The notes beneath the pieces are model-generated. The model saw only the letters and a list, made by a program, of their open reading frames with translations. It was not told where the DNA came from and did no database searches. Source: an uncultured Acidobacteriota bacterium (GTDB taxonomy: Bacteria > Acidobacteriota > Vicinamibacteria > Vicinamibacterales > Fen-181). From it: a stretch of 64,000 nucleotides of DNA. Numbering within the stretch: the stretch's first letter is position 1; each line of letters starts with the position of its first letter. The position numbers and the translations under genes were made by a program. Positions 19,199 to 30,968 of the stretch are shown here, one piece after another. The DNA is taken from assembly GCA_963783255.1 (NCBI GenBank), contig CAWAMP010000011.1, forward strand, positions 96,257-160,256. The letters run 5' to 3'.

Positions 19199-19225
19199 AA
19201 AGGGCCACCACCGCGGTGGCCCTTC
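19199..19225 (+). terminator. hairpin after the HAF-repeat gene
   Basis: aagggccacc accgc ggtggccctt, a 10-bp stem, located 42 nt after the stop. No U-tract. Confidence 0.35.
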
Positions 19226-19260
19226 GCGCGTACGGGCCGCCCCAGGTGCTAGAATCCCGC

Positions 19261-21108
19261 ATGCCAATCCGCGACCTTGCACGCCAGGCGAGGGTGCGCG
19301 GGCGCCTTCTGGCGCGCGCGTTCCTGCTGGTCTGGGAGAGCGCGCCCGGCTGGACCGGCGCGAGCATGGCGCTGGTCGCCGCGCAGGGACTGCTGCCGCT
19401 GGCGTCGCTTTATCTGCTGAAGCTGCTGGTGGACGCGCTGACGGCAGCGTTCGGCGCATCGCCGGCCGCATCGGCAGGAGCCGTGTCCGGCGCCGCGACG
19501 CCGGTGCTGATCGTCCTGTCGTTCGCCGCGGGCGTGGCGGTCCTCGAAGTCCTGTCTCGCACGCTCGCCTCCTACGTCGCTGAGGCCCAGACCCAGACCG
19601 TCATCGACCATCTTGCCGACATCGTCCACGCCCGGTCCGCCGCGCTCGACCTGAGCTACTTCGAGGACCCGCACTACTACGACATGCTGCACCGCGCGCA
19701 GGAAGAGGCGGGCTGGCGGCCGACCTACCTGGTCGGCAGCATGCTGCAGGCGGCGCAGGCGGCGCTCTCGCTTGTCGGCCTCGCCGGCCTGCTGCTCTCG
19801 TTCAACTGGGCGGTCGCCCTGGTCCTGTTCCTGGCGTCGATCCCGAGCGCCCTGGTGCGGCTCCGCTTCGCAGGCCGCCTCTACGCCTGGCATCGGACCC
19901 GTACCGCGGACGAGCGCCTGTCGTGGTACCACCACTCGCTGCTCACAGACGGCCAGTACGCCAAGGAAGTGCGGATGCTCGACCTCGCGCCAATGCTGGC
20001 GCGCCGCTTCCGCGAGCTGCGCGCGCGGCTTCGCGGCGAGCGGCTCGGCATCGCGCGCGGGCGCGTGACGGCCGACTCGATCGCCCAGGGCGGCGCGACG
20101 CTCGCCACGTTCGCCACCTACGGCGTCCTCGCCGTCGGCACCGTGCGCGGGGCTATCACGGTCGGCGGCTTCGTCATGTACTACCAGGCGTTCCAACGGG
20201 GACAAGGCTGGCTGCGCGACGTCCTCAATAACGTCGCGGACCTTTACGAGGACAGCCTGTTCCTCGGCGACCTGTTCGACTTCCTCGATTTGCAGCCGAA
20301 GACGGCAGGCGGCGCATCGCTTGCGCCGCGCCAGGCGCCGGCCGCAGGCGCGCCGCGCGAAGGCATCGTCTTCGACCACGTCAGCTACACGTATCCCGGG
20401 AGCACGCGCAAGGCGCTGGACGACGTGAGCTTCGTCATCCCGCCGGGACAGCACGCGGCCCTTGTCGGCGAGAACGGCTCCGGCAAGACGACCATCGTCA
20501 AGCTCCTGTGCCGGCTCTACGACCCGACCGAGGGGCGGATCACGATCGACGGAGTGGATCTTCGGGAGTGCGACCCGTCAGCGCTGCGACGGCGCGTCAC
20601 CGTGATGTTCCAGGACTACGCACGATACCAGCTCACCGCGCGCGAGAACATCGGGTTCGGGGACGTGGAGGCGATGGCCGACGACGGGCGCGTGGCGGCG
20701 GCGGCGGGGCGGGCGGGTGCCGACTCGGCAATCGAGGCGCTTCCGAGGCGCTACGACACGACCCTCGGCAGGTGGTTCGAAGGGGGGGTGGAGCTGAGCA
20801 CCGGCGACTGGCAGCGCGTGGCCCTCGCGCGAGCGTTCCTGCGCGACGCGGAGATCGTCGTCCTGGACGAGCCGACGAGCGCGCTCGACGCGAAAGTGGA
20901 GCACGAGGTGTTCGCCCGGCTCCGCGAGCTGGCGAGCGATCGGACCGCCGTGTTCATCAGCCACCGCATGTCAACGGCGCGTCTGGCGGACTGCATCTAC
21001 GTGCTGGCCCACGGGAAGATCGTGGAGCAGGGGAGCCACGAGGAACTCGACGCGCGCGGCGGGACCTACGCCACGCTGTTCAGATTGCAGGCTGAGAGTT
21101 ATCGGTAG
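19261..21108 (+). CDS. ABC exporter (fused permease + ATPase), candidate lasso-peptide exporter (D)
   Basis: Start taken at ATG 19261 (MPIRDL...). Six-TM N-terminal half. Walker A GENGSGKTT, signature LSTGDWQRVALARA, Walker B VVLDEPTSALD. Confidence 0.85.
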   Translation: MPIRDLARQARVRGRLLARAFLLVWESAPGWTGASMALVAAQGLLPLASLYLLKLLVDALTAAFGASPAASAGAVSGAATPVLIVLSFAAGVAVLEVLSRTLASYVAEAQTQTVIDHLADIVHARSAALDLSYFEDPHYYDMLHRAQEEAGWRPTYLVGSMLQAAQAALSLVGLAGLLLSFNWAVALVLFLASIPSALVRLRFAGRLYAWHRTRTADERLSWYHHSLLTDGQYAKEVRMLDLAPMLARRFRELRARLRGERLGIARGRVTADSIAQGGATLATFATYGVLAVGTVRGAITVGGFVMYYQAFQRGQGWLRDVLNNVADLYEDSLFLGDLFDFLDLQPKTAGGASLAPRQAPAAGAPREGIVFDHVSYTYPGSTRKALDDVSFVIPPGQHAALVGENGSGKTTIVKLLCRLYDPTEGRITIDGVDLRECDPSALRRRVTVMFQDYARYQLTARENIGFGDVEAMADDGRVAAAAGRAGADSAIEALPRRYDTTLGRWFEGGVELSTGDWQRVALARAFLRDAEIVVLDEPTSALDAKVEHEVFARLRELASDRTAVFISHRMSTARLADCIYVLAHGKIVEQGSHEELDARGGTYATLFRLQAESYR

Positions 21109-21145
21109 GGCGAGGCCTTAGTCTTGCCTGGCACTTATTTCGACT

Positions 21146-21298
21146 TCTTTCCCCTCCGGGCTGCGGCGATCGGGTTGTCCGGCTTCCCGCTGCGATAGCC
21201 CTGGGTCAGGTCGGTGACGCTTCCGTAGACGACGAGCTTCGGGGCGCGATACACCTTCCGGGGCGTTGGCCGGCCGCTGGATTCCATCCTGCCCTCCC
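21146..21298 (-). CDS. lasso-peptide precursor A1 (50 aa)
   Basis: Hand translation gives MESSGRPTPRKVYRAPKLVVYGSVTDLTQ / GYRSGKPDNPIAAARRGKKSK. GGAGGGGAGGG precedes the ATG. The leader motif YxAPxLVxYGSVTxLTQG is shared with the second precursor. Thr is at -2, the core starts with Gly and Asp is at core position 8. Confidence 0.75.
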
Positions 21299-21423: not shown

Positions 21424-21457
21424 TGGCCTTTCGGCGTGTCAGTAGAGGTAGTTACGG

Positions 21458-21545
21458 CGTGTCGATGTGGCGCGGGCGTGTCGGTGTGGCGCGGGCGTGT
21501 CGGTGTGGCGCGTGTCGGTGTCGCGCGGGGCTTCAGCCCCGCGGG
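21458..21545. repeat. REP-like array: 3-4 tandem ~19-nt units ending in the canonical palindrome
   Basis: cgtgtcgatgtggcgcggg cgtgtcggtgtggcgcggg cgtgtcggtgtggcg cgtgtcggtgtcgcgcggggcttcagccccgc, with the hairpin at 21525-21542. Confidence 0.85.
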
Positions 21546-22513
21546 AGGCCCCGCCTGACGTCCGCCAGTATTGCTTCCGTCACCGCGCCGAGATCGGTGG
21601 CGTCATCGCGGACGGTCAGTTGGCGGACCGGGACGCGCGCGGCGAGGCGGGCGAAGACGTCGAGCGCGCGCGTCCGGAGCTCGGCGTCGAGGACGTAGTT
21701 CATGTAGGTGCGGGAGACGAGCGCCATCAGGGCCTCGTGCCCCTTCAGGTCATCGATCGCGGCGGGCCGGTCGAGATCGGGTCTGCGTTCGTGCAGCACA
21801 TAGATCGCGCCGAGGGGTACCGGCCCGGCCGGGAAGCGAGTCCCGTCGGCCGTCAGTTCGAGGTGGCGCTTGTCGGTGGTGTCGCCGCCGTGCGGCAGCG
21901 CGTCCTCCGTGCCGTAGAGCGCGCGCACCGCGTCGGGCGCCAGTCGCACGACGTTGTGCCCTGGAAGCACGTGGTACTCGCCATCCGACTTGAAATCCAG
22001 CGCCAGCACATCGTCCGTCAGCGCGGCGAATCCGCGCCGGACGAACGCCGCCGCAGTCGTGGACTTCCCCGCGCCGGAGTGCCCGAGGAACGCCACGGCA
22101 CGGCCGTCGATGACGACGGCGCTGGCGTGGAGGCAGGGCGTGCCGCGCAGGTGCAGCACGAAGCCGATGATGGGCCCGAACAGGCAGGTCAGGATCTCGC
22201 CAATCGGCAGGTTCGCGGGCCAGCGGGCCCAGACCCGCAAGCCCGCCCGGTCGACCAGGAACTCCGACGCGTCCCAGTAGCGCACGCGGTAGAACTCCTG
22301 GCCGCACTGCGACACGACCAGGGTCGGTTGGCCCGCCTCGTCCGTCTCCGCGTCCGTGTAGCACACGCGCTCCGGCGCCACGAGCAGCTCCGCAGGCCAC
22401 GCGGACCCGCCGAGCAGCGACACTTCGAGATCGACGCTCTCCGAACGCGGCTCACCGCACGGTTGGTCGCGATCGATGCGGACGCGCAGGCCGAGCACGT
22501 CAACGCAGGACAT
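21533..22513 (-). CDS. HPr-kinase-like (HprK C-terminal domain) protein 1
   Basis: Start at ATG 22511-22513 (MSCVDVLGLRVRI...). P-loop LHASAVVIDGRAVAFLGHSGAGKSTTAAAF. The ORF-track extension to 22756 is not protein-like. Confidence 0.75.
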   Translation of the reverse strand: MSCVDVLGLRVRIDRDQPCGEPRSESVDLEVSLLGGSAWPAELLVAPERVCYTDAETDEAGQPTLVVSQCGQEFYRVRYWDASEFLVDRAGLRVWARWPANLPIGEILTCLFGPIIGFVLHLRGTPCLHASAVVIDGRAVAFLGHSGAGKSTTAAAFVRRGFAALTDDVLALDFKSDGEYHVLPGHNVVRLAPDAVRALYGTEDALPHGGDTTDKRHLELTADGTRFPAGPVPLGAIYVLHERRPDLDRPAAIDDLKGHEALMALVSRTYMNYVLDAELRTRALDVFARLAARVPVRQLTVRDDATDLGAVTEAILADVRRGLPRG

Positions 22514-22819
22514 GATCTTGCCCACCCCCAGTCTCGAGAGCTGGCGGCAACGACCGCGCCTGGAGGGTGGCGCAGGCGACCCCTCCCCTTGTGAAGAACC
22601 GCTGCACCGCCTCACCGTCTCTTCGTCTTGCGGTTGGGGCACACGCCGGGCCTGTCGCCCCCATCCCCAACCGCGCCATTGTTGGCCGGCTGGCGGTTCT
22701 CGGGACTCTGCCGATGGCGAATGTCCACGGCTCGCTTGGCGCCACCCTCCAGACACGGCCGGGCATCGAGGGCGAGACTGGGGATCGGCAAGAAGAGATG
22801 ATTGGGGTTCGCGGCGGAT

Positions 22820-23299
22820 TCAATGCGCGGCCCACGATTCCGGGAGGTCGTCTCCCTCGAAGGGCGAGAAGCGTTCGCCGACGTCCGGGTCGTCGTTCAG
22901 GACGAGGCCGCCGAGTTCCACCCAGGCGTGCGCCTCCAGGTGGCCGGCCGCCGTGCGGACGCCGATGCGCAGCGCGCTCTCGATGCCGCGGCGCCGCAGG
23001 ATCCACCAGAGGGCGACGGACCGCGTGAGGCAGTTCGGCCGGCCGGGAATGCGGAAGGCGGCGGCGTTCACCAGCCGGCCAGCCTCGCGCGCGCGCTGTG
23101 CGTCGGGCACTCCCGTGCCTTCGCCGATGACGGGGTGGCGGGAGAAGAACCGGCAGACGCGCCGCAGTCCGAAGATGCGGATGGCAGCCGCTACCGAGGG
23201 CAGGAGCGCAACGAGATGGAGAACGAGGCGCCGGTCCGGCGCGGGCAGGTCCCGCCACTTGCGCCAGGCCGACTGCCGGCGCGCGTCGGCTTCGCTCAT
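22820..23299 (-). CDS. lasso-peptide leader protease B2 (transglutaminase-like)
   Basis: Catalytic Cys context RPNCLTRSVALWWILRRRGI and His context GHLEAHAWVELGG. 159 aa. Confidence 0.85.
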   Translation of the reverse strand: MSEADARRQSAWRKWRDLPAPDRRLVLHLVALLPSVAAAIRIFGLRRVCRFFSRHPVIGEGTGVPDAQRAREAGRLVNAAAFRIPGRPNCLTRSVALWWILRRRGIESALRIGVRTAAGHLEAHAWVELGGLVLNDDPDVGERFSPFEGDDLPESWAAH

Positions 23300-24195
23300 G
23301 GACGACCGCTGACGCCGACGTCTGCGAGGACCGCTTCCCGCACGCGGTCGATCTGCTCAAAGTCGTGCGGGTAGGACAGGCGCCGCATCAGCCCGGTGGC
23401 GGCGAGAGCGGTCAGCCGCGTGAAGTCGGCGGCGAGTTGTTCACGATCCGGCTCGCCAATCCGGTAGGTGCAGTCCATCAGGTCGCGAAATCCGTCGTTC
23501 CAGTCAGGCGCGACAATCTCGATCGACGAGCCGGGGTCCTGCGGCAGGAGGCGGTAGATTCTGGCAAGCGGAACGTCTTCGTTCGGCGGCGGCGCGCCGA
23601 ACGACATTTGCCGCTTCTCTTCATCCCGCGGGATCGATCTTCCCGACTCCGCAGGAATGCCGAGTCGCGCGAGGGCCCTCTCCCGCAGCCTCAGGTCCGG
23701 CAGGCCGGGGTGGCAGCGAACACGCCCCTCGTGGTTCACCAGCGGGAGGCAGTCGTCGGCGAGAAGCGTGTAGCCGCGTCGGCCGAAGCTGGCCGCGAGC
23801 GTGGATTTTCCGGCGCCGCTCGTGCCAATGAAGCCCACCGCCAGCGAGGACGCGACGAGCACCGCGCTCGCGTGCAGGACGACCTGCGACAGGCTCAGGC
23901 AGAGCGGAAACGTTTCGTTGAGGAAGGAGTAGCGTGTGTAGTCCGGCGTCGCCGCAGAGCCCGGGTAGCAGACGATCGCCCTGGTGGCCGGGATGATCTC
24001 GAACTCCGTCAGCTCCGAGTTCTGCACCCAGCAGACCGACTTGTCCAGCTCGTACTGCAGAACGGCCGGCCGCGTGTGGCAGACGTCGAACGTGAAGTCC
24101 GGGGATTCGGCTGCCACGGGAGCAAGACCTGGGAACTCCAGGTTCGTCGCCACCGTGCATCCGAGGATGCGGTAGCAGAAGCTTCCGTTCCGCAT
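23296..24195 (-). CDS. HPr-kinase-like protein 2
   Basis: LHASAVLVASSLAVGFIGTSGAGKSTLAASF. Same fold pattern as 21533-22513 but strongly diverged. It overlaps B2 by 4 nt. Confidence 0.75.
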   Translation of the reverse strand: MRNGSFCYRILGCTVATNLEFPGLAPVAAESPDFTFDVCHTRPAVLQYELDKSVCWVQNSELTEFEIIPATRAIVCYPGSAATPDYTRYSFLNETFPLCLSLSQVVLHASAVLVASSLAVGFIGTSGAGKSTLAASFGRRGYTLLADDCLPLVNHEGRVRCHPGLPDLRLRERALARLGIPAESGRSIPRDEEKRQMSFGAPPPNEDVPLARIYRLLPQDPGSSIEIVAPDWNDGFRDLMDCTYRIGEPDREQLAADFTRLTALAATGLMRRLSYPHDFEQIDRVREAVLADVGVSGRP

Positions 24196-25389: not shown

Positions 25390-25539
25390 CTACAGGCAGT
25401 GCTTGCTCATGCCGGGCTGGCCGCCATCGGCCCCGCTGCCGGAGCCGCCCTGAGTCAGCTTGGTGACTGAGCCGTAGGCAACCAGCCGGGGCGCGGCGTA
25501 GGGCTTCTTCGGGGCGGATATCGTGGGGGTCGCGTTCAC
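25390..25539 (-). CDS. lasso-peptide precursor A2 (49 aa)
   Basis: Hand translation gives MNATPTISAPKKPYAAPRLVAYGSVTKLTQ / GGSGSGADGGQPGMSKHCL. GTG start with AGGAG 9 nt upstream and an in-frame TGA just before it. Same leader motif as A1, with core Gly1 and Asp8. Confidence 0.75.
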   Translation of the reverse strand: MNATPTISAPKKPYAAPRLVAYGSVTKLTQGGSGSGADGGQPGMSKHCL

Positions 25540-25651: not shown

Positions 25652-27517
25652 TTATTGCGCAAGCAGCCATGTTTCGACCGCGTACGCTGACCACACAGCC
25701 CAAGCCCCTCCCGGGTTGCCGCCCGAACGGTAGCCCGAGAGGCCGTTCCTGCACATCTCGGCCAGGCGGCCTGCGTTCACCCATCCCCGGTCCGCGATGC
25801 GCATCCGTTCGAACAGCCTGGGCCCACCAAGAGCACGCAGCGGCTCCCAGATCAGGTGCGAGAACTCCGCCTTCGTCCGCCGTCCCAGGACCGAGTCGGG
25901 GAGCAGCCCCTTCATGGCGTGGCGCAGCAGGAACTTCCGCTCGCCGCCGCGCCTGTGGCACTCCTCCGGGACAGCGAACGCGAACTCGATGACGCGGCGG
26001 TCGAACAGCGGGTGGCGCTGGTCCACACTCTGCCGGGCAGAAGCCCGGCTGCACATCTCCCAGCTGAGCGGGAGCCAGCCGTTCTCGAGCGCGTAGAATC
26101 TGTTGCGCTGGGCGTTCGACGGGAACGTGCGACCCGCGTATATCGCGTCGCAGCGGTCGTCCAGGGTCGTGCGGGCGCGAAACTCCCTTGTCAGCCACGG
26201 CCACCGGTTCCGGCGTCGGTCTCTGGCTCCGAGAAGCCGCGAGAAGGGCCAGAAGGCCTGCGCCGCCCCTCGAAGGAGGAGCCGGAATGCCGCGTTTCGG
26301 CCGAGGTCGCCCACGTCGTGCATGAATTCCGACAAGGCGACGCCGAGACGGAACCTTCCGAGCATGTCCGGATAGGGGTTGTCCGCGCCGGAGAACCAGT
26401 CGTCTCCCCCCGAGCCCGTCAGGATCACCCGGAATCCGCGCTCGTGCTGCAGGCCCTCCCGCTGGGCCACGGCGAGGCTGACGGGATTGGCCGTCAGGTA
26501 CCGGGACTCGCGAACTTCGCGGGCGAACTCTTCGACCTCTAGTTGCGGGACCGACGCGTTGTTCCGGAGGTTCCACATCCGGACGACGTCATCGATGTAG
26601 GCGCTCTCGTCGCACTTCATCCCAGGGAAGACCGAGGAGAAGGTCTCGAACCCCCACGCCGCCGCGTGCCCTTCGCGGAAGAGGTGCTGCGCCATGCCGA
26701 CGACGGACGACGAGTCGAGGCCGCCGCTGAGCTCCGCGCCAATCGGGCCGTTGCTGCGCATGCGGCAGCGGACCGCATCGCGAAACAGCTCGAAGAAGCG
26801 CTCCGCGTATTCCTGAGGGTTCCCGAACCGGATCTGCCTGTCGAGGTCGATGTCCCAGTAGCGCTGGCAGCGAAGCCCGTCGGCGGTGACGATGAGGAAG
26901 TGGGCGGGCGGAAGGCGGCGGACGCCCTGGTATAGAGTTTCGTCGCGGCTCGTCACTTCGACCGCGAGGAACTCGGCGGCCAAGCCCTCATTCGGCGTCG
27001 TGTCGATCGACGGAGCCTCCAGGATTTGAGCGACCTCGGAACCGAAGACGAACTGCGAGGGGTCGTGGTGGTAGTAGAAGGGTCTGCAGCCCAGAACGTC
27101 ACGGGCGCAGTAGAGCTGTCTGTCCTTCGGGTCCCAGATGGCGAAGGCGAAGTCGCCCAGCAGGCGGGCGGCGCAGTCGTTCTTCCAGAGGAAGTACGCG
27201 CACAGGACCAGTTCGGCGTCGGTGTCGTCGCGGGGCTGGACGCCTTTCGCGCTGAGGTCGCGCCGCAGTTCCTCGCGGTTGTCGATGCGGCCGTCGAAGA
27301 CCAGGCGGAAGCGACCGGTCGAGTCCGACAGCGGCTGGTTCTCGGCGGCAGCTTCTGGCGTCGTATGGAACGCGCCGTAGCCCAGGGCCACATTCCCGCC
27401 CATCCATGCCGCGGTGCCATCCGGGCCCCACGGGCGCATGAGGAGCATGACCCGGTCGAAGACGTCCCGGTCGATCTCCCTGCCGTCGAAGTTCCAGATG
27501 CCTGCGATCCCGCTCAT
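25652..27517 (-). CDS. lasso-peptide cyclase C (asparagine-synthetase-like)
   Basis: N-terminal MSGIAGIWNFDG (Ntn amidotransferase-like). PP-loop GAELSGGLDSSSVVGMA. 621 aa. Confidence 0.85.
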   Translation of the reverse strand: MSGIAGIWNFDGREIDRDVFDRVMLLMRPWGPDGTAAWMGGNVALGYGAFHTTPEAAAENQPLSDSTGRFRLVFDGRIDNREELRRDLSAKGVQPRDDTDAELVLCAYFLWKNDCAARLLGDFAFAIWDPKDRQLYCARDVLGCRPFYYHHDPSQFVFGSEVAQILEAPSIDTTPNEGLAAEFLAVEVTSRDETLYQGVRRLPPAHFLIVTADGLRCQRYWDIDLDRQIRFGNPQEYAERFFELFRDAVRCRMRSNGPIGAELSGGLDSSSVVGMAQHLFREGHAAAWGFETFSSVFPGMKCDESAYIDDVVRMWNLRNNASVPQLEVEEFAREVRESRYLTANPVSLAVAQREGLQHERGFRVILTGSGGDDWFSGADNPYPDMLGRFRLGVALSEFMHDVGDLGRNAAFRLLLRGAAQAFWPFSRLLGARDRRRNRWPWLTREFRARTTLDDRCDAIYAGRTFPSNAQRNRFYALENGWLPLSWEMCSRASARQSVDQRHPLFDRRVIEFAFAVPEECHRRGGERKFLLRHAMKGLLPDSVLGRRTKAEFSHLIWEPLRALGGPRLFERMRIADRGWVNAGRLAEMCRNGLSGYRSGGNPGGAWAVWSAYAVETWLLAQ

Positions 27518-27612: not shown

Positions 27613-27894
27613 TCACTGAGAGACCGTGAGCAGCCCGTGCTCCACCAGCTCGCCGATCAGCTTCTCCATGTCGGTGCGCAGTTGCGCCGGCTCGACGTCG
27701 TACTCGGCGGCCAGGCTGTCGTAGGCGGCCTGTATATTGCGGGCGTCCGTGAGGAGCGTCCACATCCTCGTCCCGACCTCGTCGAGGCCGAAGTACTTCT
27801 CGGTCTTGAGGTTGAGGACGACCGACTCGCCCTCGAGGCTACGGACCAAAACGCCGTCGGGCACGGACACGCGCGCTGTGAACGGTATGTTCAT
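27613..27894 (-). CDS. PqqD-family RiPP recognition element (lasso B1)
   Basis: 93 aa. ...VLVRSLEGESVVLNLKTEKYFGLDEVGTRMWTLLTDARNIQAAYDSLAAEYDVEPAQLRTDMEKLIGELVEHGLL, the typical PqqD pattern. Confidence 0.85.
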   Translation of the reverse strand: MNIPFTARVSVPDGVLVRSLEGESVVLNLKTEKYFGLDEVGTRMWTLLTDARNIQAAYDSLAAEYDVEPAQLRTDMEKLIGELVEHGLLTVSQ

Positions 27895-27900
27895 TGGTGT

Positions 27901-27960
27901 GTGTGGCGGTCGTCGCCGTGGCGCGGGGCCTCGCTGTGGCGCGGGGCTTCAGCCCCGCGT
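27901..27960. repeat. REP-like element
   Basis: gtgtggcggtcgtcgccgtggcgcggggcctcgctgtggc followed by the palindrome gcggggcttcagccccgc at 27941-27958. Confidence 0.85.
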
Positions 27961-29049
27961 GATGATCTTCCCCAACACCCTGAACGGCCGTATGACATGC
28001 AGCAGCGGCTTCAGGCGCGGCGGCAGTGGCAGGAAATCGTTGTCCGTCTGGTTCGCCTCAAGCGCCCGCCGCCACACATATCGGGCCTTGTCGCGGAGCG
28101 TGCCCGCCATCCGCAGCTGCATCATGGCGCCAGCCGGCCGGCCTGCGACGTCACCGTCCTCGGTGAAGAGGCTGCGTTCGATCTGCCGAGCGACGCTCAC
28201 TGCAATCGTGTCGCGCCTGGCCTCCGCGATCACATCGGGCGGCACCGGCGCCGAAAGCAGATCGCCGGCAAGAAGCAGCGCAACGTGGAACATCCGCCGG
28301 GTTCGACGGTCGGCGAGCAGCGCGTGCCAGCCAATCGGGGCCACCCGCACGAGGTTGGCGACGTCGCAGATCCACCCTAGCGACGTCCAGCAGTGCCGCG
28401 CCCCGTGCAGGGCGAGACAGGCAAACAGATCGTCAGCGCCAAACGTCGGCAGCGCGCCGCCGGCCATGTCTAGCCGGTGGACACGCGTCAGCGCCGCATC
28501 CGTGTCGACCGATGGCAGGTAGTGTGGTGAGACGGCCCAGTGGAGGTCCACGTCACAACCGGCCGGTGTCGCCAGACCGATTTCGCAATTGCCGCTCAGG
28601 TCTGCAGCACCTGGGGCACCCTTCTGGACACACCCGTTCGCAATCAGAACCGAGATCGCTCGGGTTCTGTCGCCCGGCCGAACCAGGATGTCCAGGTCGC
28701 AGAACTCTCGGAGTGCGAGGTCGCCGTAGGCCCACGCCGCGAGTGTCGGCCCCTTGTAGGCGATGGCGGGAACGTTCTCGGCCTCCAGCCAGCCCATGAC
28801 CGCTTTCAATTCGGCGGTCATCATCATGTTGCGGGCGGCATTCGCGAGGAATGCCTTGCGGAGATCTTCAGCGACCTCTGCCGGGATCGCGTCCGGGGGG
28901 TGCTGCCTCAGGCGCGAGTAGAGCAGCGGCAGCAGGCCGTGTCGGGCGGCCTGGCCCTTGACCGCTTCCCAGTCCGTCACCGCCTCGGCCGCCCGGCGCA
29001 ACGCCGCGGCATCCGCGCCGACGCGAGCCGCCTGGATCAGGATGTCCAC
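27949..29049 (-). CDS. uncharacterised nucleotidyltransferase family protein (NTP_transf_5-like)
   Basis: Start set at GTG 29047-29049, the first start codon after the upstream gene's stop. HGLLPLLY...AYKGPTLAAWAYGDLALREFCDLDILV...DVDLHW matches the family often seen next to lasso genes. Confidence 0.65.
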   Translation of the reverse strand: MDILIQAARVGADAAALRRAAEAVTDWEAVKGQAARHGLLPLLYSRLRQHPPDAIPAEVAEDLRKAFLANAARNMMMTAELKAVMGWLEAENVPAIAYKGPTLAAWAYGDLALREFCDLDILVRPGDRTRAISVLIANGCVQKGAPGAADLSGNCEIGLATPAGCDVDLHWAVSPHYLPSVDTDAALTRVHRLDMAGGALPTFGADDLFACLALHGARHCWTSLGWICDVANLVRVAPIGWHALLADRRTRRMFHVALLLAGDLLSAPVPPDVIAEARRDTIAVSVARQIERSLFTEDGDVAGRPAGAMMQLRMAGTLRDKARYVWRRALEANQTDNDFLPLPPRLKPLLHVIRPFRVLGKIITRG

Positions 29050-29065
29050 AAGCGGACGACCAGTC

Positions 29066-30968
29066 CTATGCCGACCGTGCTTCGGCCGGCCGCTGCACGA
29101 GGACCGGCTCCGCCGCCAGATCACCGTCCGGGCGAAGGGCCCCGAGAGGGTCCCTGACCTCTTCGAACCGGATTTCCATTCTGACCAGCCTCGCACCCGC
29201 CCGCGTACAAGCCTCCCGCGCCAGCGCAACCGCAGATTCGGGGATCTTGCGTGTCGAAATGACCACCGCGCCGACCCGGTTCGAGCGGACGCAGGCCTCG
29301 AGGTTGTTGACGTTCCCGACTATGGGCACGCCGTTCACGGTCTTCCCGACCCGCAGTGGGTCATCGTCGATGAACCCGACCGCGTGCAGATCCACGTGCC
29401 GGTTCGACAGCATCTCCCGCAGCGTGCTGGCGCCTCCCTGGCCGGCCCCATAGATGAGTGCGGGTACGCCGCCCTTCACCGCGCGCTCGCGGCTCGCATC
29501 CAGAATGCGATAGGACATCCGGGACCCGAGCGCGAGCCCCATTGCCACCAGCGCGTAGATCAGGAAGAGCGACATCGCGGCCGGCTGCTGCAGAACCACA
29601 TTCACGCCAACAAACGCAAGGAACGACGCGGCGACGATTGCGGCGCAAATGCGCACGCTGTCGTAGACGCTGGCGAGGCGCCAGGATCCGCGGTAGACGC
29701 GCAGCAGCCAGAGGATCAGGACCGTCGTCGGAATCAGCGTGGCCGTCATGGCGGTTTGCAGTGCGCGGTACGACCTCAGCGTCCAGTCGTCGTGTTTCAG
29801 CCCGATCGCCGCGAACACCGCGATGCCGACAAACAGGATGTCGATGAAGACGACGAAGATCGAACGCCTGAGGACGGGCGTGTCGTACAGCCGCAGGACC
29901 ACGCCGGAACGAATGACCGCAAACTCCTCATAGCCGAGTCGGCCGACGCCCACGAAGGCGGCCAGTAAAAGGCCGGCCAACAGGAGGCCGGCGCGTTCGG
30001 CCGTAAGGAACACCGAGACGAGGCCAGCGGCCGCGAGACAGAGGCCGGCGGCGTAGAGTACCAGAACGGCCCGTCGCTGGTCGAGTCCGAGGTCAAGCAG
30101 GCGATGATGCACGTGCTCCCGGTCTGCAGTGAAGATGCGGCCCCTCCCATGCCAACCGGCGGCGCCGATCGCCCGCCGCACGATCGACAGCAGTGTGTCG
30201 GCGACCGGCACGCCGAACACGATGATGGGAAGGAGTGTGGCGAAACCCGCGGACACGGTCGAGCCGCCGCGCAGCGCAAGGCAGGCCAGGGTGAAGCCAA
30301 TGGCCGTCGCGCCCGTGTCTCCCAGGAAGCTCGACGCTGGATGGAAGTTGTAGGGGAGGAAGCCGGCCAGCGCGCCGGCGAGAATCATCGCGGCGACGGC
30401 GATTCCCGGCTGGTGGACGAGCAAGAATACCGCGACGAGGCTGCCGGCAGAGATGAATGCCAGGCCGGCGGAAAGGCCGTCCAGTCCGTCCACCAGGTTG
30501 AAGGCGTTGGTGACGCCGATCAACCACATGACCGAGATCGGCGCGGCCCACATGCCGATATGCACCGTGTAGCCCAAGACGTGCACGTCGGGGTTCAGGC
30601 TCACGCCGAGCGCCACGGCGACGATTGCACCGGCGACGTGGCCCGCAAACTTGGGACCCGCTGGCAGGCGCCTGACGTCGTCGACGAACGAGACGACGAC
30701 GATGGGGATGAGCCCGAGGGCCAGCCCGAACCAGAGGGAGTCTGCCTTGAACACGGAGGTGGTGGCCGACACGAACGCGAAGACCAAGAATCGCAGCAAC
30801 CATGACGGCCAGGCCCCCGAGACGCGGGGTCGGTGTGGCGTGGATCTTCCGCGCCGTGGGGCGATCGACAGCCCCGAGCCGCAGCGCCAGCCGACGGGCG
30901 AGGGGCGTCAGCAGCCAACTAAGGACTGCTGCGCCGATACCTGGCAGGACGAGAAACAGCATCGGCAT
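29066..30968 (-). CDS. WecA/MraY-like polyprenyl-phosphate sugar-1-phosphate transferase fused to a CapD/WbpM-type N-terminal membrane + Rossmann module; apparent frameshift near 30783-30800
   Basis: ORF 30093-30968 gives the N-terminus MPMLFLVLPGIGAAVLSWLLTPLARRLALRLGAVDRPTARKIHATPTPRLGGLAVMVAA. ORF 29066-30799 then continues with VDDVRRL...NAFNLVDGLDGLSAG...FLGDTGATAIGF. After that come 4-5 TM helices and ALIYGAGQGGASTLREML...FIDDDP...GVPIVG. Confidence 0.75.

Follow-up and report, generated by a model that had tools for sequence, protein, structure and literature searches.

Why a lasso-peptide gene cluster with a single cyclase should carry two HprK/PEPCK-fold kinases and two precursor genes is the question raised by a 64,000-nucleotide stretch of contig CAWAMP010000011.1 (called the window below), whose host is described as a soil or sediment Acidobacteriota. 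The minus strand of the window holds a complete split-B lasso-peptide cluster, transcribed in the order PF14907 nucleotidyltransferase, B1, C, A2, methyltransferase, K2, B2, K1 and A1, where A1 and A2 are the precursors and K1 and K2 the kinase homologues. We contend that K1 and K2 are probably two competent lasso-precursor kinases from anciently separated subfamilies, and that the cluster would represent two lasso systems merged on one B1, B2, cyclase, nucleotidyltransferase and exporter, with one kinase per precursor. This reading is put forward with some confidence rather than as settled, and it draws on observed homology and gene order, on the fold and the intact catalytic residues, and on a correspondence of precursor type with kinase type throughout the family.

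An earlier note on this DNA had described two diverged HPr-kinase-like paralogues on either side of B2, and this description was borne out. By BLASTP, K1 and K2 are 34% identical over 193 residues (E 5e-15), with the N-terminal ~100 residues unaligned; judged from their sequences, they are true homologues, strongly diverged and alike far beyond chance. The K1 open reading frame (ORF) was listed as 21533-22756, and its homologues begin at the ATG at 22513. K1 contains the string LHASAVVIDGRAVAFLGHSGAGKSTT and K2 the string LHASAVLVASSLAVGFIGTSGAGKSTL, and both carry the LHASAV...G.SGAGKST context to which attention had been drawn. Characterised lasso kinases share a motif consisting of a His, G-x2-G-x-G-K-S and an Asp-Asp pair (H148, G163, G166, G168, K169, S170, D186 and D187 in BsfK; PMC10368454). 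The His, the Lys and both Asp residues are required in ThcoK (PMC9266682), and the motif was re-probed in BsfK (Figs S10 and S11; PMC10368454). Both proteins fit H-x14/15-G-x2-G-x-G-K-S-x15-D-D, by means of H129, G144, G147, G149, K150, S151, D167 and D168 in K1 and H108, G124, G127, G129, K130, S131, D147 and D148 in K2. Little or no variation is seen at these positions in alignments of 81 K1 homologues and 78 K2 homologues, and His108, Gly129, Lys130, Ser131, Thr132, Asp147 and Asp148 are invariant in the latter. Inactive P-loops had been named as a possible weakness of the kinase proposal; the P-loops and catalytic residues are intact in both proteins.

The AlphaFold2 models agree with this picture, with a predicted local distance difference test (pLDDT) of 93.6 and a predicted TM-score (pTM) of 0.91 for K1, and 92.8 and 0.90 for K2. 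Foldseek matched both models to phosphoenolpyruvate (PEP) carboxykinase (PEPCK) and HprK/P at probability 1.0, with a query-normalised TM-score of ~0.5 for PEPCK, while a sequence search of solved structures with K2 returned just marginal P-loop matches (E >= 0.15). Identity to the characterised kinases in the catalytic core, measured against partial reference sequences, ranges from 33 to 61% over 46-87 aa (K1-SyanK 49% over 86 aa, K1-BsfK 61% over 46 aa, K2-BsfK 49% over 76 aa). The features of lasso-kinase membership, namely fold, motif, a cluster with A/B1/B2/C and similarity to characterised members, were thus all found in K1 and K2, and on sequence and structural models both are predicted, at high confidence, to be active enzymes of this family.

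Another family assignment had also been proposed. The HprK-related kinase families A and B, which the earlier note named, do exist (TIGR04352, HprK_rel_A, and TIGR04355, HprK_rel_B), and the idea that followed from them was that the locus is an instance of the HPr-rel-A system and ties this orphan system to lasso peptides. The part kinds are similar, comprising two HprK-like proteins, a PqqD protein and a nucleotidyltransferase, and HprK_rel_A is the top NCBIfam match of both kinases (E 1.8e-06 and 7.5e-06). More typical relatives of K2 score 42-52 bits over ~180 residues, and therefore a distant common origin with HPr-rel-A is plausible. Membership is nevertheless refuted, and we consider it extremely improbable: against the A and B models K1 scores 27.3 and 22.0 bits and K2 25.2 and 20.0 bits, where the cut-offs are 200, and the matches span ~50 P-loop residues of the 280 and 351 model positions. 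The other components do not match the partners of the system either. B1 matches only the lasso, GeoRSP, Scm and PQQ PqqD models (E <= 0.01) in an NCBIfam library to which the PqqD model of HPr-rel-A presumably belongs, and the nucleotidyltransferase matched no NCBIfam model.

Two further families were tried and rejected. HprK/P proper gave 20.2 and 17.5 bits for K1 and K2 against TIGR00679 (cut-off 240), and 23.9 and 19.6 bits against Pfam Hpr_kinase_C (PF07475), both below the gathering score of 33.3. For ScmC, K1 reached 15.6 bits against TIGR04249 (cut-off 125) and K2 gave no match; precomputed matches to PF27840 (ScmC) are found for K1 and many of its relatives, mostly weak or faint, and not for K2. 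Literature searches on HprK-related kinases and on ScmC/SynChlorMet returned nothing useful.

Relatives of the two kinases were surveyed in 103 loci, of which 19 came from a one-genome-per-species scan (13-sequence K2 alignment), 80 from a metagenome scan (K1 alignment) and 4 from single-protein look-ups; all were annotated with the window's own proteins as queries and carry L numbers below. The A/B1/B2/C lasso context around the kinase recurs in these loci. The nearest genome is L005, a metagenome-assembled genome (MAG) of an uncultured Acidobacteriota bacterium whose K2 is 85% identical. A neighbour-joining tree of 94 near-full-length lasso-linked kinases (300 bootstrap replicates) reveals a deep split with K1 and K2 on opposite sides (96% bootstrap), and the K1 clade (7 sequences) and the K2 clade (4 sequences) are each recovered at 100%. 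Mean identity across the two sides is 25-27%. Given this split and this identity, K1 and K2 are not recent duplicates, and their sequences mark them as members of two old subfamilies. Of all clades, that of K1 lies nearest to SyanK and BsfK, and the methyltransferase-linked clade to which K2 belongs is the farthest from each of the five characterised kinases. When 1.84 billion representatives were searched exhaustively with K2, relatives numbered 12,495 at E <= 1e-3, 2,662 at E <= 1e-10 and 7 at E <= 1e-30, and a single full-length cluster exceeds 50% identity. The K2 clade is thus rare and fast-evolving inside a very large family.

Each of these subfamilies occurs alone with its own type of core peptide in dozens of loci. 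On the K1 side the locus order is B1-B2-C-A-K, often followed by a methyltransferase, an exporter and the PF14907 gene, and the cores are basic. Of 39 distinct cores, 34 contain a Lys or Arg followed by Ser or Thr with 0-4 residues to the end, against a mean of 4.9 and a maximum of 12 when the tails were shuffled (2000 shuffles), and the five cores without the motif have Thr at that place nonetheless. All 44 K1-side cores have Ser or Thr among the last six residues; the Lys/Arg-preceded residue stands mostly 1-2 residues before the end, and at the very C-terminus in 1/44 cores, as a Thr (...INKT). K2-clade loci have the order C-A-methyltransferase-K, and their cores combine an 8-9-residue Gly/Ser/Thr-rich ring, usually followed by Gly-Gly, a Met-rich tail and often a Cys-Leu end (GMSKHCL, TMNMKCL, AGMMMVCL, QQMGTCL, AMPHM and SMATMMA). 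The Lys/Arg-Ser/Thr end motif is found in none of these 10 cores; ring Ser/Thr and tail Met are found in all 10, and the tail has no Ser/Thr in 3 of them.

The two precursors of the window follow the same division. The A1 leader ends ...DLTQ and precedes the core GYRSGKPDNPIAAARRGKKSK, and the A2 leader ends ...KLTQ and precedes the core GGSGSGADGGQPGMSKHCL. The leaders are 71% identical and the likeness ends precisely where cleavage is predicted (...LTQ|G); therefore one B1/B2/C set can plausibly serve both precursors. Each core could form an 8-residue ring (Gly1-Asp8), and a ring Ser is present in both. The earlier note was right that neither core ends in Ser (A1 ...KSK, A2 ...HCL) and that each has one Ser-Lys, and both lack the C-terminal Ser of the Pade/Thco/Syan/Psm subgroup. 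The premise that the C-terminal Ser is the sole target is outdated, as BsfK of Bradymonas sediminis, a kinase stimulated by B1, phosphorylates Ser3 in the ring (PMC10368454). Nor did Ser-Lys hold as a shared feature: it is absent from A2 relatives (MNMKCL, AMPHM, MMMVCL, MGTCL), including the nearest intact one (L001, MNMKCL). A1 relatives keep Lys-Ser instead (KKSK, KKSR, KKKSR, KKKKSK, RKKSK). A1 itself (...RRGKKSK) and its close relatives conform to the end motif of the K1 side, and on sequence comparison the conserved end feature of the A1 group is Lys-Ser rather than Ser-Lys.

Two observations concern these precursor genes. An A1 homologue in L025 (804-953), GYGSGKPNNPNAAAHRKKSK, has Asn in place of the ring-forming Asp, and its sequence suggests that the copy is defunct or was misread in sequencing. 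Among the A2-type genes of the window, L001, L005, L006, L007 and L011, core residue 1 is Gly, Ser, Arg, Asn, Thr or Ala and Asp is fixed at position 8, if cleavage follows ...LTQ; many A2-type cores end in Cys-Leu, which together with the variable first residue is unusual among lasso peptides.

One kinase per precursor, one of the options in the earlier note, gains comparative support from these separate deep subfamilies, each of which elsewhere stands by itself beside its own kind of precursor. The other option is that the two kinases share their precursor or precursors, working in sequence or redundantly (priming followed by polyphosphorylation, or two sites), and that the pairing is coincidental. 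Characterised lasso kinases accept varied substrates and can polyphosphorylate (PMC8498205; PMC9266682), and leaders as similar as those of A1 and A2 would not let leader/B1 recognition separate the two; a ring Ser is present in both cores. We still regard shared action as unlikely, given that each subfamily is paired with its own core type when alone and that two kinases per locus are limited to this lineage (the window, L001, L002 and L005) and to L003. In L003 (1-11158, MAG contig GCA_024640805.1) both kinase types stand in separate modules with their own cyclase each, a layout that may be the pre-merger arrangement. Its first module reads N-C-A-methyltransferase-PqqD-kinase-PqqD-B2, and the second, past several Uma2-family genes, has the second cyclase, the K1-like kinase and a hemerythrin gene. 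No A1-type precursor was found beside the K1-like genes of L003, which ends soon after the gene, and L004, which looks decayed. L002 (3600-9530) and L005 (4830-8850) show a split nucleotidyltransferase and cyclase and a frameshift in a second, tandem A2-type gene, and K2 of L002 is broken; these breaks reflect either decay or long-read assembly error. Unlike these two, the window cluster is intact and has one A2.

The methyltransferase raises a different possibility for K2. Its gene accompanies the kinase in all 10 K2-clade loci and in 10 of 21 K1-side loci. In the window its stop codon lies 1 nt ahead of the K2 start (junction TAG-g-ATG) and the stop codon of K2 overlaps the start codon of B2 (ATGA), and because of this gap and this overlap we consider methyltransferase, K2 and B2 translationally coupled. 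K2 could accordingly be imagined not as a usual Ser/Thr peptide kinase but as an obligate partner of the methyltransferase, activating another group, making a phosphate for methylation or acting as a substrate-holding subunit. The invariable adjacency and the coupling speak for such a role, as do the distance of its clade from the five characterised kinases, the truncated and diverged N-terminal part of K2 and the three cognate cores without tail Ser/Thr; literature searches found no paper on a PRMT-like methyltransferase in lasso clusters or on its pairing with the kinase. The residues for phosphoryl transfer are all invariant, however, every cognate core has a ring Ser/Thr, a ring Ser is the proven site of BsfK, and the methyltransferase also accompanies K1-side kinases, hence is not specific to K2. 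We therefore hold this role to be quite improbable.

As for what the methyltransferase does, a Lys precedes the end-motif Ser/Thr in 11 of 12 cores from loci with the enzyme and in 3 of 11 from loci without it (Fisher p 0.003, relatedness ignored), and as a lead from these sequences the enzyme may methylate this Lys. It has a C-terminal extension of ~90-100 residues, conceivably a fused leader-binding domain, with no Pfam match and no similarity to B1 (BLASTP). It can further be speculated, as a long shot, that K2 and the methyltransferase install an undescribed modification on Met-rich A2-type cores (a methylated phosphoester or a phosphorylation-dependent N-/S-methylation), and that K1 makes a Lys-adjacent phospho-Ser on A1 that the same methyltransferase and the PF14907 enzyme elaborate. 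If true, one merged cluster with a single cyclase would yield two chemically distinct, multiply tailored lasso peptides.

Under the merged-cluster reading, the following course would be expected. K1 would phosphorylate linear A1 with ATP at the penultimate Ser of ...KKSK. K2 would act on A2, most likely at ring Ser3 or Ser5 and not at the tail Ser-Lys, since only ring hydroxyls are common to the clade and BsfK provides a precedent (PMC10368454). By analogy with characterised systems, both kinases would act on the linear precursor, probably aided by B1, and leader removal and cyclisation would come after phosphorylation. The PF14907 protein may then extend or decorate the phosphate, as PsmN does (PMC6993621; PMC8498205).

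Several points weigh against two merged systems with one kinase per precursor. For the reference kinases, only partial sequences machine-read from a PDF (PMC10368454 supplement) were used, which leaves the identities to them approximate. The loci were gathered via kinase searches, so the tail motif could reflect another shared enzyme, and 17 of the 21 K1-side loci with sufficient flank contain PF14907. Bootstrap support for the clade of 12 that joins K2 with every kinase having a methyltransferase directly upstream is only 69%. Only four intact A1-type cores are available, and in A2-type cores a hydroxyl residue is fixed at no position. The N-terminal ~60 residues of K2 are unlike those of other family members, and therefore its substrate could differ. 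Lastly, a sequencing-run search found no near-identical run, only distant metagenome contigs with <=9% of sampled words shared.

The coordinates of the cluster and of the residues discussed above are collected in Table 1.

Table 1. Genes, motifs and candidate sites of the lasso-peptide cluster, with positions in the window
Feature	Position	Strand	Basis or remark
ABC exporter (D)	19216-21108	+	ABC_tran match; MsbA-like, 287 bits; convergent with A1
Precursor A1	21135-21287	-	NF033521 24.8 bits (cut-off 19)
A1 penultimate Ser, predicted K1 site	21141-21143	-	Lys/Arg-Ser/Thr motif in 34/39 related cores
K1, lasso-precursor kinase (predicted), HprK/PEPCK fold, SyanK-like, 326 aa	21533-22513	-	Start set by homologues
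K1 Asp167-Asp168, Mg/catalytic pair	22010-22015	-	Asp168 invariant, Asp167 Asp or Glu; motif from PMC10368454
K1 P-loop GHSGAGKS, residues 144-151	22061-22084	-	Read from sequence; G144, G149, K150 and S151 invariant
B2-K1 spacer, 306 nt	22514-22819	-	Between B2 stop and K1 start
B2, leader peptidase, transglutaminase-like	22820-23299	-	NF033537 lasso_biosyn_B2 99 bits (cut-off 33); PF13471 92 bits
K2, divergent HprK/PEPCK-fold kinase (predicted), methyltransferase-linked clade, 299 aa	23296-24195	-	ORF list, invariant motif, fold model
K2 Asp147-Asp148	23752-23757	-	Invariant in 78-homologue alignment
K2 P-loop GTSGAGKS, residues 124-131	23803-23826	-	Translation and alignments
PRMT/PrmA-like S-adenosylmethionine (SAM) methyltransferase, 380 aa	24197-25339	-	PF06325 40 bits; PRMT_C 21 bits
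Precursor A2	25390-25539	-	NF033521 26.0 bits (cut-off 19)
A2 tail Ser14	25408-25410	-	Unconserved
A2 ring Ser5, candidate phosphorylation site	25435-25437	-	Ring Ser/Thr in all clade cores
A2 ring Ser3, candidate phosphorylation site	25441-25443	-	Ring Ser/Thr in all clade cores
C, lasso cyclase, sole cyclase of cluster	25652-27517	-	NF033535 432 bits, below cut-off 525; Asn_synthase 144.6 bits, above gathering score 21
B1, PqqD-type leader-binding protein (RiPP recognition element, RRE)	27613-27894	-	PF05402 61 bits; NF033536 54 bits, below cut-off 80
PF14907 nucleotidyltransferase, PsmN-type family	27949-29229	-	PF14907 183 bits

The start of the PF14907 gene may lie further downstream, judging from homologues of 366-382 aa. 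About 240 nt of the B2-K1 spacer are missing in L001, L002 and L005, whose corresponding gap measures 50-90 nt (DNA alignment). An Rfam scan of the window gave no match, the spacer included, and a promoter and terminator scan gave no signal beyond chance level. Between the K1 stop and A1, at 21456-21512, lie 3 copies of a 19-nt unit, GGCGTGTCGGTGTGGCGCG (plus strand), with 97% match. Polysaccharide-synthesis genes (Glycos_transf_4, CoA_binding_3 and glycosyltransferases) adjoin the cluster in the window (29066-30799, minus strand) and in L001 (2014-4893), and these are probably mere neighbours.

Phosphorylated lasso peptides are known from few clusters, with the C-terminal Ser or ring Ser3 as the site. 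The kinase family behind them is very large and found mostly in soil and sediment bacteria (2,662 clusters at E <= 1e-10 from K2 alone); one of its major branches has a simple, testable substrate signature, Lys/Arg-Ser/Thr near the C-terminus, and a second, uncharacterised branch is tied to a PRMT/PrmA-like methyltransferase. The window brings both branches together with two short precursors and shared enzymes, and thereby offers a compact system for probing kinase specificity and for learning what the methyltransferase and the nucleotidyltransferase contribute, while a tempting link to HPr-rel-A is removed as wrong. Lasso kinases, non-C-terminal sites and PF14907 partners are already known. 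As far as the searched literature shows, the two-kinase/two-precursor merged cluster, the Lys/Arg-Ser/Thr end motif and the methyltransferase-locked kinase clade are new.

Compared with known systems, K1 and K2 share fold and P-loop with HprK/P and PEP carboxykinase and differ from them in N-terminal domain and genomic context. HPr-rel-A has distant P-loop homology and a similar set of parts, at scores ten-fold under the cut-offs. Much closer are SyanK (Sphingobium yanoikuyae), ThcoK, PadeK and PsmK, with which K1 and K2 have in common the HprK-like P-loop core and the His/Lys/Asp-Asp motif, and which also stand in split-B lasso clusters, often with a PF14907 nucleotidyltransferase. Those kinases (poly)phosphorylate the C-terminal Ser, whereas K1 is predicted to act on the penultimate residue, a Ser preceded by Lys, and in the wider K1 subfamily the site is usually a Thr 1-2 residues before the end. 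The Bsf cluster resembles the one described here in having a nucleotidyltransferase and a precursor without C-terminal Ser. It encodes a single kinase and a single precursor with Ile at position -2 of the leader, and it lacks a methyltransferase, whereas the cluster in the window has Thr at -2, two kinases, two precursors and a PRMT/PrmA-like methyltransferase.

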